Shown here one piece after another: positions 33,991-38,985 of a stretch of 64,000 bases of DNA. Position numbers and translations under genes: made by a program. The notes beneath the pieces are model-generated. The model was not told the origin of the DNA, did not search any database, and saw nothing but the letters and a program-made list of their open reading frames with translations. The first letter of the stretch is position 1. Each line of letters opens with the position of its first letter. The DNA is from a plasmid: the sequence record NZ_CP118918.1; one strand, 5' to 3'.

Positions 33991-34344
33991 TCAGCGGCAC
34001 GTGATACACCGGCGGTGGTCCTCGGATGGCTGGCAGTCATCGCCCCACTCGCCCTCGTTGTGCAACCCCTCCATGCGGTCTGCGCATCCCCCGCAACACC
34101 CGGCCCAGCCCTGCCCGTCATCAAGGGATTCGCGACACCCTTCATCGAACGGGTCGCGGCACGCAGCATCGTCGTCACTTATGTCGAATCCGTCGAAGAT
34201 CGTTGCTATGGCATCAGGTATCGATGAATGAGGGATCGCCGCAGAAAGGCGTTCGAGCTGACCTGACGTGAGCCGGAAACCTGCCCAGTCGTCGGCTTGT
34301 TCAGGGGAAATCAATTGCAGGGCCACTACATCCGTTGTGCTCAT
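33991..34344 (-). CDS. Cys-rich acidic hypothetical protein
   Basis: 117 aa with CC..C and C..C clusters. Its 5' leader is near-identical to that of the Doc-like gene at 38925. Confidence 0.45.
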   Translation of the reverse strand: MSTTDVVALQLISPEQADDWAGFRLTSGQLERLSAAIPHSSIPDAIATIFDGFDISDDDAACRDPFDEGCRESLDDGQGWAGCCGGCADRMEGLHNEGEWGDDCQPSEDHRRCITCR

Positions 34345-34474
34345 AGCAATTAGTGTAGTCGGTTAATAGTGGCGTGGGAACACTTTTCGACACTACTTCC
34401 AAGGGAAGGGCAAGAAACTCGCGCAGCCCGATACGTTTGCGCTGACGCCACTTCCGCTGACGCTTTCAGGAGGT

Positions 34475-34897
34475 ATGCTCACAAGCGTGGCCGTGGTGCT
34501 TCATAGTTTGCGGGGATTTCCCCATACTGATATCGCTGCGCGGCTACCGCTGGAGCTGTCGGTGGCCGGACGGTTGCGCTCGGATCTGCCGGGTCGGTTT
34601 TGGTTGTGTCGAGTAGCGGCCGAGATGTGGTGCAGGCTGGACGAATCCACGGAGCGGAGCCATATCTGTGAAGCCCTCTTATCCGAGGATGGGAGTTCGT
34701 TGCGCGTGAGCGCACTGGTGGTGACTCCAGCGGCCAGTAATCAGGTTCTACAGTCCGGGATTGAGAACCTTGCGGTGCACGCTGCGGCGGTCCTCGACCC
34801 TGTTGTGGGCGAGTCAGGGGTGTTCAACGCCGCGCAGGTCGGTTACCTCGGGTGCGGACTGTTGGACGACGCGGCACGGGTGCCAACTCGGGTCTGA
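34475..34897 (+). CDS. Hypothetical protein
   Basis: 140 aa. Strong RBS CAGGAGG 5 nt upstream of the ATG. Confidence 0.45.
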   Translation: MLTSVAVVLHSLRGFPHTDIAARLPLELSVAGRLRSDLPGRFWLCRVAAEMWCRLDESTERSHICEALLSEDGSSLRVSALVVTPAASNQVLQSGIENLAVHAAAVLDPVVGESGVFNAAQVGYLGCGLLDDAARVPTRV

Positions 34898-34914
34898 GGT
34901 AACGCTGCCGCTGG

Positions 34915-35718
34915 TCAGGAGTGGCTTGACCACCAGGTGTAGAGCTGTTCCAGGCTTGGTTTTTGGGGTGTGTCGGCTCGGATTGTTGCCAGGAGGAGCG
35001 TCGATGTGGTGGTCCAGGCGACCATCGGTTGACTGTCCTGGTTGGTGCCGCACAGCAGGGTTCCGGCGACGGTTTCGGGGTTGGCGTTGCGGCGCCACGC
35101 ACCCGGGGACTGGTAGCCGCCGTCGGCCCCTGGGCACACCTTCGCGGTGGTGGAGGCGGTGACGTCGGCAAATGCGGCATCGAGGTCCGCGGTGGCGTCA
35201 TAGAGCGTGTAGTGCGCGGTCGTTGCCTCGGCGATGGCGGGGTGTGGCCCGCAACGCACGCCAGCGATGGCCGGTGGCGGCTCAGTGGTCGCAGTGCAGT
35301 CCGAGGGTCGATATCCAGGTGGCAGGTTGTGGCGCAGCAGTTCCGCCGCGGCCGTCGTGGTGTCGGCGGCGGCGGCCGGGGAGTTCGTGGCCTCCGGCGG
35401 GTCTGGTGAGGGCCACAGCAGGATCGCCCACAGCACGACCGCGATGGTCGCGACAACGGCGAAGATGGACCACAGAATCACCAGGGGCCGCTGCATACGC
35501 GGTGGGCGCCGGATCGGTGTGATCGCGATTGTTTGGTCGACGCTCGCGCCCAGGTCCGATTTCTGGGAGCTGACGGACTGGTCGCGGGCGGCACCGCTGG
35601 CAGCCAGGTCCGTGGCCGGCGGCGGATACGGGTGTGGGGCATCGGCGGCAGACCAGGTGAAGAACCCCGTGAGTTCGGGAAGTGGACCTGTGGGCGGGTC
35701 GTCGGAGGTGGGTGTCAT
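34915..35718 (-). CDS. Membrane protein with a Pro-rich N-terminus, one TM helix and an extracytoplasmic Cys-containing domain
   Basis: The ATG at 35718 (MTPTSDDPP...) gives about 267 aa with a TM helix LVILWSIFAVVATIAVVLWAILLW. Confidence 0.5.
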   Translation of the reverse strand: MTPTSDDPPTGPLPELTGFFTWSAADAPHPYPPPATDLAASGAARDQSVSSQKSDLGASVDQTIAITPIRRPPRMQRPLVILWSIFAVVATIAVVLWAILLWPSPDPPEATNSPAAAADTTTAAAELLRHNLPPGYRPSDCTATTEPPPAIAGVRCGPHPAIAEATTAHYTLYDATADLDAAFADVTASTTAKVCPGADGGYQSPGAWRRNANPETVAGTLLCGTNQDSQPMVAWTTTSTLLLATIRADTPQKPSLEQLYTWWSSHS

Positions 35719-37782: not shown

Positions 37783-38155
37783 CCTTTCCTGTGGCGGTTG
37801 CGCTGGTCAGATCTCGTTGTCGCTGACGAATCCGCCGGCGAACGTCCATGGTCCCCATGTGGGTGGGGTCGCTCGCTGCGGCATCCATGCGGATCACGGT
37901 GACCGTGTGGCCACCCTCAACCCAGGAATGGGTTGTGCTCACCTGCTCGATGAGCGAGGCGAACTCGTGTGCGCGTTGCTTGGTCTGCGTCTGGCGGTCA
38001 CCGGTGATGGCACCGAAGTCGTGTAGTGCGAGGGCGAGCCACCGTGCGGCGTGCTCTGCTTGCACCCATTCCTCGGCCGGTGTGTAGTAGCCGCCGGGGT
38101 ATCCCGGGCCCTCGATTTCGAAGGTCCATAGTGACGTAGCTTCATCAGTTCGCAT
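37766..38155 (-). CDS. Hypothetical protein
   Basis: The internal ATG at 38155 gives about 129 aa. Confidence 0.4.
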   Translation of the reverse strand: MRTDEATSLWTFEIEGPGYPGGYYTPAEEWVQAEHAARWLALALHDFGAITGDRQTQTKQRAHEFASLIEQVSTTHSWVEGGHTVTVIRMDAAASDPTHMGTMDVRRRIRQRQRDLTSATATGKGADNG

Positions 38156-38238
38156 GGTCCTCAGTTTCCCTTGTATCCGTTGGTGTGTGAGTCGCCGCGT
38201 CGGGTCATCGACATGAGGAAGGAAAACCATGCTTGGAG

Positions 38239-38925
38239 TTACCGGCCGATCCGGGTGAGCCCGGCGCGGCGTAGCAGCGTTTTCACTGCCTCGTGTTCGT
38301 TGTAGAGGTAGGCCCTGGCCAGCAGGTCGTTGAACGTTTTCGCTACACCGGGATCGTTGTCATCGACCGGGATGGTAAGCAAGACACCGGCATCAGCGCC
38401 GATGAGCAGGCTGTTGGCGACGAATACGGCGGTGCGCTTGTTGCCGTCCTCGAACGGTTGCGCTTTGGCGAGGTTGATGAACAGGTCGAGTGCGTTTTCT
38501 TCAGCCTCGGGGCTGCGGGTCGCGTTGTCGAGCAGGAGTTGGAGCTGGTCTTCGGTCAGGGCATCGGGAGAGTGGCGCCCGTACGGTGTCGTGACGCCTA
38601 TGGCCTGGTCCTGAGTCCGCAGCTGCCCGGGATGTAGGGCTCCGCTGCGGGTGATGGTGGCGTTGATGGCCCGCACGAAGCCTGCGTCGATGCGATGGGC
38701 GGCGTGGTCGATCACGAATTGCGCCGCGTCGCGCAGATCTTCCAGTAGCGCCAGGTCGGCCCGCGATGAAACTCCTTCCAGGCTGCCGGTCCGCAGGAAG
38801 TTCTCGGTGTCCAGTCGGCCGGTGGATAGGCCGTCGAACACTCTGCCCGACGAATAGACCACGCCAGCAAGGTCGGTCACGGTGAGTCGACCCACGGCAC
38901 GGTCGTCTTGATCGGCTGCGTTCAT
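38239..38925 (-). CDS. Doc/Fic-family protein with the catalytic His replaced by Gln
   Basis: 228 aa. The motif AQPFEDGNKRTAVFVAN corresponds to the Doc-type HxFx(D/N)(A/G)NKR motif with His changed to Gln. Confidence 0.6.
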   Translation of the reverse strand: MNAADQDDRAVGRLTVTDLAGVVYSSGRVFDGLSTGRLDTENFLRTGSLEGVSSRADLALLEDLRDAAQFVIDHAAHRIDAGFVRAINATITRSGALHPGQLRTQDQAIGVTTPYGRHSPDALTEDQLQLLLDNATRSPEAEENALDLFINLAKAQPFEDGNKRTAVFVANSLLIGADAGVLLTIPVDDNDPGVAKTFNDLLARAYLYNEHEAVKTLLRRAGLTRIGR

Positions 38926-38930
38926 AGCTT

Positions 38931-38985
38931 TTAGTGTAGTCGATTAATTGAGTTGTCGGATCAGGAATTGTGTAGTCGATTATCA
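38931..38985. promoter_or_regulatory. Two direct copies of GTGTAGTCGATTA in the divergent promoter region between the Doc-like and RHH genes; a third copy lies at 34353-34365
   Basis: TTAGTGTAGTCGATTAAT at 38931-38948 and TTGTGTAGTCGATTATC at 38968-38985. TTAGTGTAGTCGGTTAAT at 34350-34367 immediately precedes the start codon of gene 33991..34344. Confidence 0.55.

Follow-up and report, generated by a model that had tools for sequence, protein, structure and literature searches.

A shared operator-like motif over the -10 hexamers of three probably leaderless promoters on a mycobacterial conjugative plasmid, and an adjacent ribbon-helix-helix protein as its candidate repressor

Small plasmid and phage repressors as a frame for the locus

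The omega repressor of the inc18 plasmid pSM19035 is a small, plasmid-encoded ribbon-helix-helix (RHH) protein with a basic, flexible N-terminal tail, which represses its own promoter and those of other plasmid functions through a single repeated sequence word, forming a small regulon. Arc and Mnt of the P22 immI region and CopG of pMV158 are RHH repressors from a family size range of 45–83 amino acids (aa) that act at short, pseudo-symmetric operators lying over core promoter elements, and P22 immI in addition arranges its control around a compact divergent promoter pair. All of these traits are seen or proposed in a 64,000-nucleotide (nt) stretch of a mycobacterial plasmid (record NZ_CP118918.1; this whole stretch is called the window here, and positions count from its first letter). 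There, a 13-mer, GTGTAGTCGRTTA, lies over the predicted -10 hexamers of three genes, which encode a 64-aa RHH protein, a Fic/Doc-family protein and a cysteine-rich (Cys-rich) protein. The best explanation for the arrangement is a circuit that would work like those of omega, CopG and Arc/Mnt. It is reasonably probable that the motif is an operator in three SigA-type promoters of leaderless geometry, and that the RHH protein, its putative binder, represses them.

The likeness is one of design. Omega occupies arrays of 7–10 contiguous heptads and shares its transcript with a toxin–antitoxin pair, whereas each promoter here carries one site of 11–13 bp centred at -16.5, has leaderless geometry, and is paired with a protein that has no detectable sequence relationship to omega beyond the fold. 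Arc places two or more dimers on ~21 bp and CopG extends a 13-bp element by cooperative binding, and the hosts and promoter types of both differ from those considered here. The promoters themselves share with the leaderless SigA promoters of mycobacteria (PMC3898074) a TANNNT hexamer, mostly an S-R-N trinucleotide before it, the lack of a conserved -35 element and a start codon at the expected transcription start. They differ in that the TA of the hexamer is contributed by either end of the operator pseudo-palindrome, and in nothing else unusual.

Two further groups of proteins invite comparison. NikA of R64, TrwA of R388 and MobA/MbpA share with the RHH protein its best family match, PF21983, and some members repress their own operon; in contrast to them, the RHH gene lies away from the relaxase gene, there are no inverted repeats like those of an origin of transfer (oriT), and the sites are locked to -10 hexamers. 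In Phd/Doc and FicT/FicA, as here, a Fic/Doc-fold protein with an NKR signature stands beside a small DNA-binding protein under a shared control region. However, the two genes are divergent here, a Gln replaces the catalytic His, the DNA-binding partner has an RHH rather than a Phd/YefM or FicA fold, and it has no toxin-binding tail. Judged from sequence and gene neighbourhood, the RHH protein is a NikA-like Pfam member without the contextual features of either a relaxosome protein or an antitoxin.

The motif and its register with the -10 hexamers

Three exact copies of the 13-mer occur in the window, all on the plus strand (O-cys, O-A and O-B in Table 1). The sequence-only reading that preceded this analysis had implied four, but the spacer between the Fic and RHH genes holds two, one of which is the Fic-proximal copy that had already been counted. 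When up to two mismatches are allowed, the window contains 7 matches against 1.05 expected, a number reached in none of 100 shuffles. The 11-mer core GTAGTCGNTWA is present four times against 0.09 expected per shuffled window, at the three promoters and at position 28322. In pSMC-4_1, a complete 134-kb relative from Mycobacterium sp. SMC-4, the three promoter sites are the only full sites. The core includes a 10-bp pseudo-palindrome, TAGTCGATTA, with TCGA at its centre. Positions 1 and 2 of the 13-mer differ among lineages (GT, GC, TC, TT or GG), leaving GTAGTCG-N-T-W-A as the invariant part.

At every site, the gene-proximal TA of TAGTCGATTA doubles as the TA of a TANNNT -10 hexamer. Written towards the gene, the Fic promoter (P-fic) reads TAATCGAC-TACACT-N7-ATG, the Cys-rich promoter (P-cys) TAACCGAC-TACACT-N7-ATG and the RHH promoter (P-rhh) TAGTCGAT-TATCAT-N7-ATG, the TATCAT starting at the last TA of the copy at 38970. 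The RHH gene is thus built like the Fic and Cys-rich genes, a layout that the earlier reading had missed. The start codons of the Fic and RHH genes are 68 bp apart, with their promoters back to back, and the dyad centre lies at -16.5 from the ATG on both sides (between TC and GA at 38941/38942 for O-A, and at 38977/38978 for O-B).

Other elements of that reading fared unevenly. Its placement of TACACT at -13 to -8 before the Fic and Cys-rich ATGs was confirmed, on the minus strand and with 7 nt following, and its statement that both genes lack a Shine-Dalgarno sequence also held, neither such a sequence nor an alternative upstream start being found. Its description of the 30 nt before these two ATGs as nearly identical survives in part: they are alike at 23 of 30 positions, but only ~18 nt (TTAGTGTAGTCGATTAAT) form the part of the leftward leaders that is conserved across lineages. 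The AGC that both genes have next to the ATG is specific to the window. The RHH gene resembles the other two first genes, in that a survey of the sequence and of the list of open reading frames (ORFs) found no Shine-Dalgarno sequence and no upstream start codon for any of the three; in contrast, the operon-internal thermonuclease gene has AGGAG 5–6 nt ahead of its ATG.

Promoter mapping in Mycobacterium tuberculosis placed TANNNT 7–12 bp upstream of transcription starts, often with S-R-N before it, and mycobacterial promoters have no conserved spacer or -35 sequence (PMC3898074). The geometry of the motif promoters agrees with that mapping. The bases preceding their hexamers are GAC, GAT, GCT or GTT (mostly GAC or GAT) and mostly fit S-R-N. 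Transcription most likely begins with the first base (A or G) of the start codon, so that the transcripts are predicted to be leaderless.

The register is retained across the lineages compared. Seven lineages with 18 promoters were compared, drawn from several sources. The first comprised the window and its three plasmid relatives, namely pSMC-4_1 and pSMC-8_2 of Mycobacterium sp. SMC-4 and SMC-8 (90.7% identity over the 33–40 kb region) and a plasmid of Mycobacterium sp. djl-10 (84.5%). Contigs encoding RHH homologues added M. neglectum, the most diverged isolate, with an RHH identity of 76–80% depending on the alignment. A scan of a genome collection for the site pair yielded six mycobacterial contigs, and a metagenome scan with the RHH protein only yielded six loci, two of which represent new lineages at 69–71% identity. 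All 18 promoters consist of the core GTAGTCGNTWA, TANNNT, 6–7 nt and ATG (GTG once). The hexamers of the leftward genes, always followed by 7 nt, vary only at their N positions (TACACT, TACCCT and TACGAT), with TACACT or TACCCT at P-cys and, in the other lineages, TACACT or TACGAT at P-fic. At P-rhh the hexamer is TATCAT, TATTGT or TATTAT, with 6–7 nt to an ATG or GTG. The discriminators vary freely in sequence among lineages and are fixed in length. In six lineages the Fic–RHH spacer shows two invariant blocks, TTA..GTAGTCGATTAAT at O-A and GTAGTCG.TTAT..T, with ~20 variable nt between them; at O-B, GTAGTCG-N-TTAT is kept in all seven. In SMC-4, djl-10, M. neglectum and JER01, O-cys is found at the corresponding position. 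An Rfam scan of 33500–39700 at E <= 1 matched nothing, so no known RNA element explains this conservation, and a full-text literature search for the motif turned up unrelated papers only.

Several look-alikes were set aside. The fourth exact core of the window (GTAGTCGATAA, 28322–28332, plus strand) lies in GC-rich, probably intragenic coding DNA, has no counterpart in pSMC-4_1 and was treated as a chance occurrence rather than an operator. A scan of viral contigs with a 17-mer gave 8 matches, all of them single sites in contigs of 36–43% GC; they were judged to be chance, and no link to phages follows from them. In djl-10-type plasmids, GTAGTCGAT occurs twice, 39 nt apart (4040–4136, minus strand, of locus L002, and near positions 68–107 of loci L008–L012), upstream of a second, canonical Fic pair. 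By eye, these copies are part of a small unannotated ORF and translate to IDY within the repeated peptides SPIDYTL and SPIDYAL, and their resemblance to the operators looks coincidental.

The candidate repressor and competing accounts

The motif keeps company with the RHH gene. Wherever a lineage has this RHH protein, the trio of sites is found in the same positions, and all replicons found with the site pair encode the protein next door. Conversely, loci recovered through the RHH protein alone carry the sites too, including the lineages at 69–71% identity. The presumptive targets behave differently: an M. chimaera plasmid whose Fic gene is 76% identical lacks both the RHH gene and the motif, and that Fic gene has a leadered GTG start; homologues of the Cys-rich N-terminal domain on other plasmids have Shine-Dalgarno leaders and likewise neither RHH gene nor motif. 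From these two cases, the distribution of the motif is seen, in the sequences compared, to follow the RHH protein rather than the target genes.

Membership of the protein in the RHH fold family is confirmed by a Pfam score above the curated cutoff (35.8 bits against 27, E 9.2e-09, residues 13–52). Its predicted DNA-reading beta-strand, VPVRFT, is, like the operator core, invariant in the isolate alignment and in both metagenome lineages, and only ~8 residues follow helix 2, leaving almost no C-terminal extension. A PDB sequence search gave weak RHH-fold matches only, among them NikA (2ba3) and an Arc variant. Adjacency, autoregulatory geometry, the short pseudo-palindromic site and co-occurrence together argue, with moderate confidence, that this is the operator-binding protein. 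The sequence-only reading had predicted RHH autoregulation together with co-repression of the other two genes. Its cis side stands, in the form of a shared, conserved element over the -10 of all three genes, whereas the RHH protein is its putative binder.

Besides the RHH gene's own promoter, two others carry the motif, and in all three the dyad lies near -16 and the site overlaps the -10. A protein centred there would overlap the -10, which argues for repression rather than activation. In the proposed scheme, RNA polymerase would be blocked by a dimer, most likely of the 64-aa RHH protein, bound at a dyad with its centre at -16.5 or -15.5 and thus lying over the upstream edge of the -10 hexamer. 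Three promoters would be silenced in this way: that of the RHH gene itself, P-fic, which stands back to back with it at 68 bp, and P-cys, 4.6 kb away.

Several points weigh against this account. What the sequences show is the sites, how well they are conserved, their fixed geometry and their restriction to plasmids with the RHH gene; where transcription begins, how far the operons extend, that the promoters are repressed and which protein binds are inferred. The hexamer at -13 to -8 is one base beyond the commonest position, and an E. coli-style -35/-10 scan of 33900–39300 found no promoter, an outcome to be expected for mycobacteria, which have no -35 consensus. The TAGTCGATTA site is a pseudo-palindrome at only 4 of 5 positions, and its departure from symmetry (a G at position 3 and a T at 8) has the same orientation at every site, a regularity for which a model with a simple symmetric dimer does not account. 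The low-confidence AlphaFold2 monomer of the RHH protein has a mean predicted local distance difference test (pLDDT) score of 69 and shows one long helix and no strand; RHH proteins fold as dimers. Lastly, the XRE-type regulator and the 589-aa protein, which have helix-turn-helix (HTH) domains, travel with the sites too, in lineages where their genes are visible, and feedback loops through them are also possible.

This last point leads to the most serious competing account, in which the operator design is the same and the binder is the XRE regulator or the 589-aa HTH/sigma-like protein. Both genes lie inside motif-headed operons, which would make their products autoregulators; wherever this part of the block is visible in relatives, the two genes are conserved; and both proteins carry DNA-binding domain signatures. 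Co-occurrence does not discriminate here, as tblastn with the XRE protein finds close homologues in the same plasmids only. HTH dimer half-sites, however, are typically ~10 bp apart, and an 11-bp core with a 10-bp pseudo-palindrome would be short for an HTH dimer while being typical for one RHH dimer. In addition, many MOBF mycobacterial plasmids carry homologues of the 589-aa protein at ~35% identity, and the two loci examined, for gene neighbourhood and not for the motif, differ in their surroundings; autoregulation remains the simplest explanation for a site on the RHH gene's own promoter. An HTH binder is regarded as unlikely, if worth keeping in mind.

Conceivably, repression by the RHH protein could also serve as an entry switch of pRAW-like conjugative plasmids, in which the two leftward operons fire from strong leaderless promoters in a repressor-free recipient and close down as the RHH protein accumulates, that is, zygotic induction of establishment or anti-defence genes. 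The content of these operons (a His-less Fic protein, a secreted thermonuclease, the 589-aa HTH protein and the Cys-rich protein) lies on that side of mobF on which a leading region would be expected. In a variant of this idea, the NikA-like RHH protein could also mark the oriT of the pRAW-like plasmid class. The switch is a speculative and rather improbable elaboration.

A relaxosome role in its own right, with the RHH protein as an accessory protein of the NikA/TrwA/MobA type, the repeats at or near oriT and promoter repression secondary, draws on the NikA-like best Pfam match, weak NCBIfam matches to the mobilization proteins MobA and MbpA, the weak PDB match to NikA 2ba3 and the NCBI name of close homologues, 'plasmid mobilization protein'. 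The pRAW paper gives no oriT location (PMC4173767). Yet ~18 kb in the window and 50 kb in pSMC-4_1 separate the locus from mobF, near which no copy of the motif lies, and there is no inverted repeat of the nic-flanking kind in or beside the 68-bp spacer. An oriT would not need the sites to be in register with -10 hexamers and start codons, as all three are, and the resemblance is limited to the generic RHH fold, the NCBIfam scores falling far under their cutoffs (MobA, 23 bits against 80). This account is very unlikely.

The same low standing is given to the idea that the shared sequence is no more than a strong promoter module that spread from gene to gene and has no DNA-binding protein of its own. 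The motif does consist in part of the -10 hexamer and the S-R-N bases before it. However, different halves of the 11-mer act as the -10 according to orientation: at O-B, GTAGTCG falls in the spacer, and at O-A and O-cys it is TWA that does so, yet the non-promoter half is as invariant in the seven lineages as the other. Conservation of the entire 11-mer argues for an operator and not a bare promoter, mycobacterial promoters being without a conserved spacer or -35 (PMC3898074).

Least probable of these accounts is a type II toxin–antitoxin pair of Fic and RHH proteins, Doc/Phd-like or FicT/FicA-like, with the repeats as its operator. It takes support from the Fic/Doc fold with its Doc-like NKR, a weak similarity of the RHH protein to TacA/RelB antitoxins, the shared control region and the circumstance that mycobacterial toxin–antitoxin transcripts are, from what PMC8485053 reports on them, often leaderless. 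Against it, the genes are divergent and not co-transcribed, and the catalytic His is Gln in the six aligned homologues of this Fic subfamily, from mycobacterial, Enterococcus and Ligilactobacillus plasmids, a replacement that leaves the Doc toxin/antitoxin reading unsupported. By sequence, the RHH tail of ~8 residues past helix 2 has no (S/T)xxxE(G/N) inhibitory motif, the M. chimaera Fic gene stands alone without an RHH gene, and the operator is found on an unrelated operon as well. The toxin–antitoxin flavour implied by the sequence-only reading finds no support, on the same grounds: the Gln, the divergent genes and the near absence of a C-terminal extension. A TacA/TacT pair (DUF1778 plus GNAT) was rejected, as TacA1 is borderline (21.1 bits against 21) and there is no GNAT gene beside the RHH gene, those of pSMC-4_1 being ~6 kb away and unlinked, and so was a partition site or iteron, because each locus has a single site, neither a ParA nor a Rep gene lies beside it, and the sites stay in register with start codons.

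The putatively regulated genes and their plasmid

The features discussed above are collected in Table 1. Under the preferred reading, with the RHH protein as repressor, two operons run leftward from the motif. The P-cys operon probably comprises the Cys-rich, thermonuclease, 193-aa and XRE genes, and the P-fic operon the Fic gene and the four genes downstream of it, co-transcription being suggested in both cases by spacing and conserved order. The downstream genes of P-cys (32166..33946) have the same strand and order in all relatives; the ORFs of the P-fic string (34915–38925) are tightly packed or overlapping, in an order shared with relatives. The Cys-rich protein is conserved and belongs to no known family, and, the nuclease and the Fic fold apart, searches with PADLOC, PHROGs and NCBIfam did not assign the genes of the two operons to any system.

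Table 1. Positions of the motif copies, predicted -10 hexamers and genes in the window
Feature	Position	Strand	Remarks
Operator O-cys, GTGTAGTCGGTTA (putative)	34353..34365	+	Exact match; overlaps -10 of Cys-rich gene promoter
O-cys core, GTAGTCGGTTA	34355-34365	+	From sequence
Operator O-A, GTGTAGTCGATTA (putative)	38934..38946	+	Exact match; overlaps -10 of Fic gene promoter
Operator O-B, GTGTAGTCGATTA (putative)	38970..38982	+	Exact match; overlaps -10 of RHH promoter
-10 hexamer TACACT of P-cys	34352..34357 (AGTGTA on +)	-	7 nt before ATG at 34344
-10 hexamer TACACT of P-fic	38933..38938 (AGTGTA on +)	-	7 nt before ATG at 38925
-10 hexamer TATCAT of P-rhh	38981..38986	+	7 nt before ATG at 38994
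RHH protein gene, 64 aa, proposed repressor	38994..39188	+	Pfam NikA-like PF21983
Cys-rich protein gene, 117 aa	33991..34344	-	ORF without upstream alternative start; first gene of probable P-cys operon
Thermonuclease gene	33317-33946	-	SNase Pfam E 6.5e-23; P-cys string
193-aa protein gene	32619-33200	-	P-cys string
XRE-type HTH regulator gene	32166-32609	-	XRE matches; P-cys string
Fic/Doc-family gene, 228 aa	38239..38925	-	Pfam PF02661, 36.2 bits against cutoff 24; first gene of probable P-fic operon
130-154-aa protein gene	37766-38230	-	P-fic string
91-aa membrane protein gene	37507-37782	-	P-fic string
589-aa HTH protein gene	35715-37484	-	Weak sigma-70 region 4 match; P-fic string
281-aa protein gene	34915-35760	-	P-fic string
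140-aa gene, no family match	34475-34897	+	Between the two operons, divergent from Cys-rich gene

The Fic protein has the motif QPFEDGNKR, with Gln in place of the catalytic His when the catalytic motif of Fic/Doc proteins is taken as HxFx(D/E)GN(G/K)R; the second Fic protein of djl-10 has the canonical HPFREGNTR, His included. The Gln-for-His change (QPFEDGNKR or QIFWDGNKR) marks a subfamily with plasmid homologues from mycobacteria, Enterococcus and Ligilactobacillus, noted besides the window at 2435–3136 in locus L021, 2459–3190 in L022 and 8004–8669 in L003, and tblastn found 316 plasmid records with a Fic homologue. Gln-bearing Fic proteins may be non-catalytic or have a different chemistry. 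A PDB sequence search with the Fic protein returned no match at E <= 0.01. A T-G-S-L-E-G in its N-terminal part would fit a class II inhibitory-helix motif, but it is not kept in close homologues and was put down to coincidence. At the DNA level, the first 5–6 Fic codons (ATGAACGCAGCCGAC, 38911–38925) are near-invariant in the five isolate-derived lineages while nearby sequence varies, and one metagenome lineage differs from the others there. This near-invariance could reflect a constraint on the 5′ end of a leaderless mRNA.

Between the two operons, the divergent 140-aa ORF is a real conserved gene, with 78–93% protein identity across four lineages. Public records differ on its length (63 aa for SMC-4, 103 aa for djl-10, 136 aa for SMC-8), and its AGGAGG lies 1 nt from the ATG, so that its start is uncertain. 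Just 5′ of it, a direct repeat, TTGCGCTGACGC / TTCCGCTGACGC, with copies 15 nt apart (34437–34463), is kept in SMC-4 and loosely in djl-10, and could be a second control element of this divergent region. Farther afield, homologues of the 589-aa HTH/sigma-like protein occur on ~20 mycobacterial plasmids at 28–39% identity, and in both loci examined a thermonuclease gene is close to the homologue's gene, which suggests that the two form a conserved backbone pair. The thermonuclease also matches the PADLOC candidate-defence model SNc+LTD (E 2.9e-47). On an M. chimaera plasmid, NZ_LT703506, a 61-aa hypothetical gene (4303–4488) is labelled VIM-69 carbapenemase at 100% identity by the PLSDB resistance prediction, a label that looks like an annotation artefact.

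The plasmid itself belongs to the pRAW-like conjugative class of mycobacteria described in PMC4173767. This assignment follows from the complete pSMC-4_1, with its ESX (type VII) locus, VirB4/VirD4-like genes and MobF relaxase. The relaxase gene of the window is at ~15–21 kb. The regulation of mycobacterial conjugative plasmids with ESX and type IV secretion systems is largely unstudied. The locus would offer a testable control circuit for ~10 mostly uncharacterised genes, kept in one clade of these plasmids, with a single small candidate repressor and a defined operator at each of three probably leaderless promoters as its parts. The mechanism itself would be the standard RHH-type repression scheme. 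Its economy lies in the operator: either end of the pseudo-palindrome gives the TA of a -10 hexamer, so that one type of site would serve promoters on both strands, and the three promoters might find use as compact, repressible leaderless expression elements for mycobacteria.

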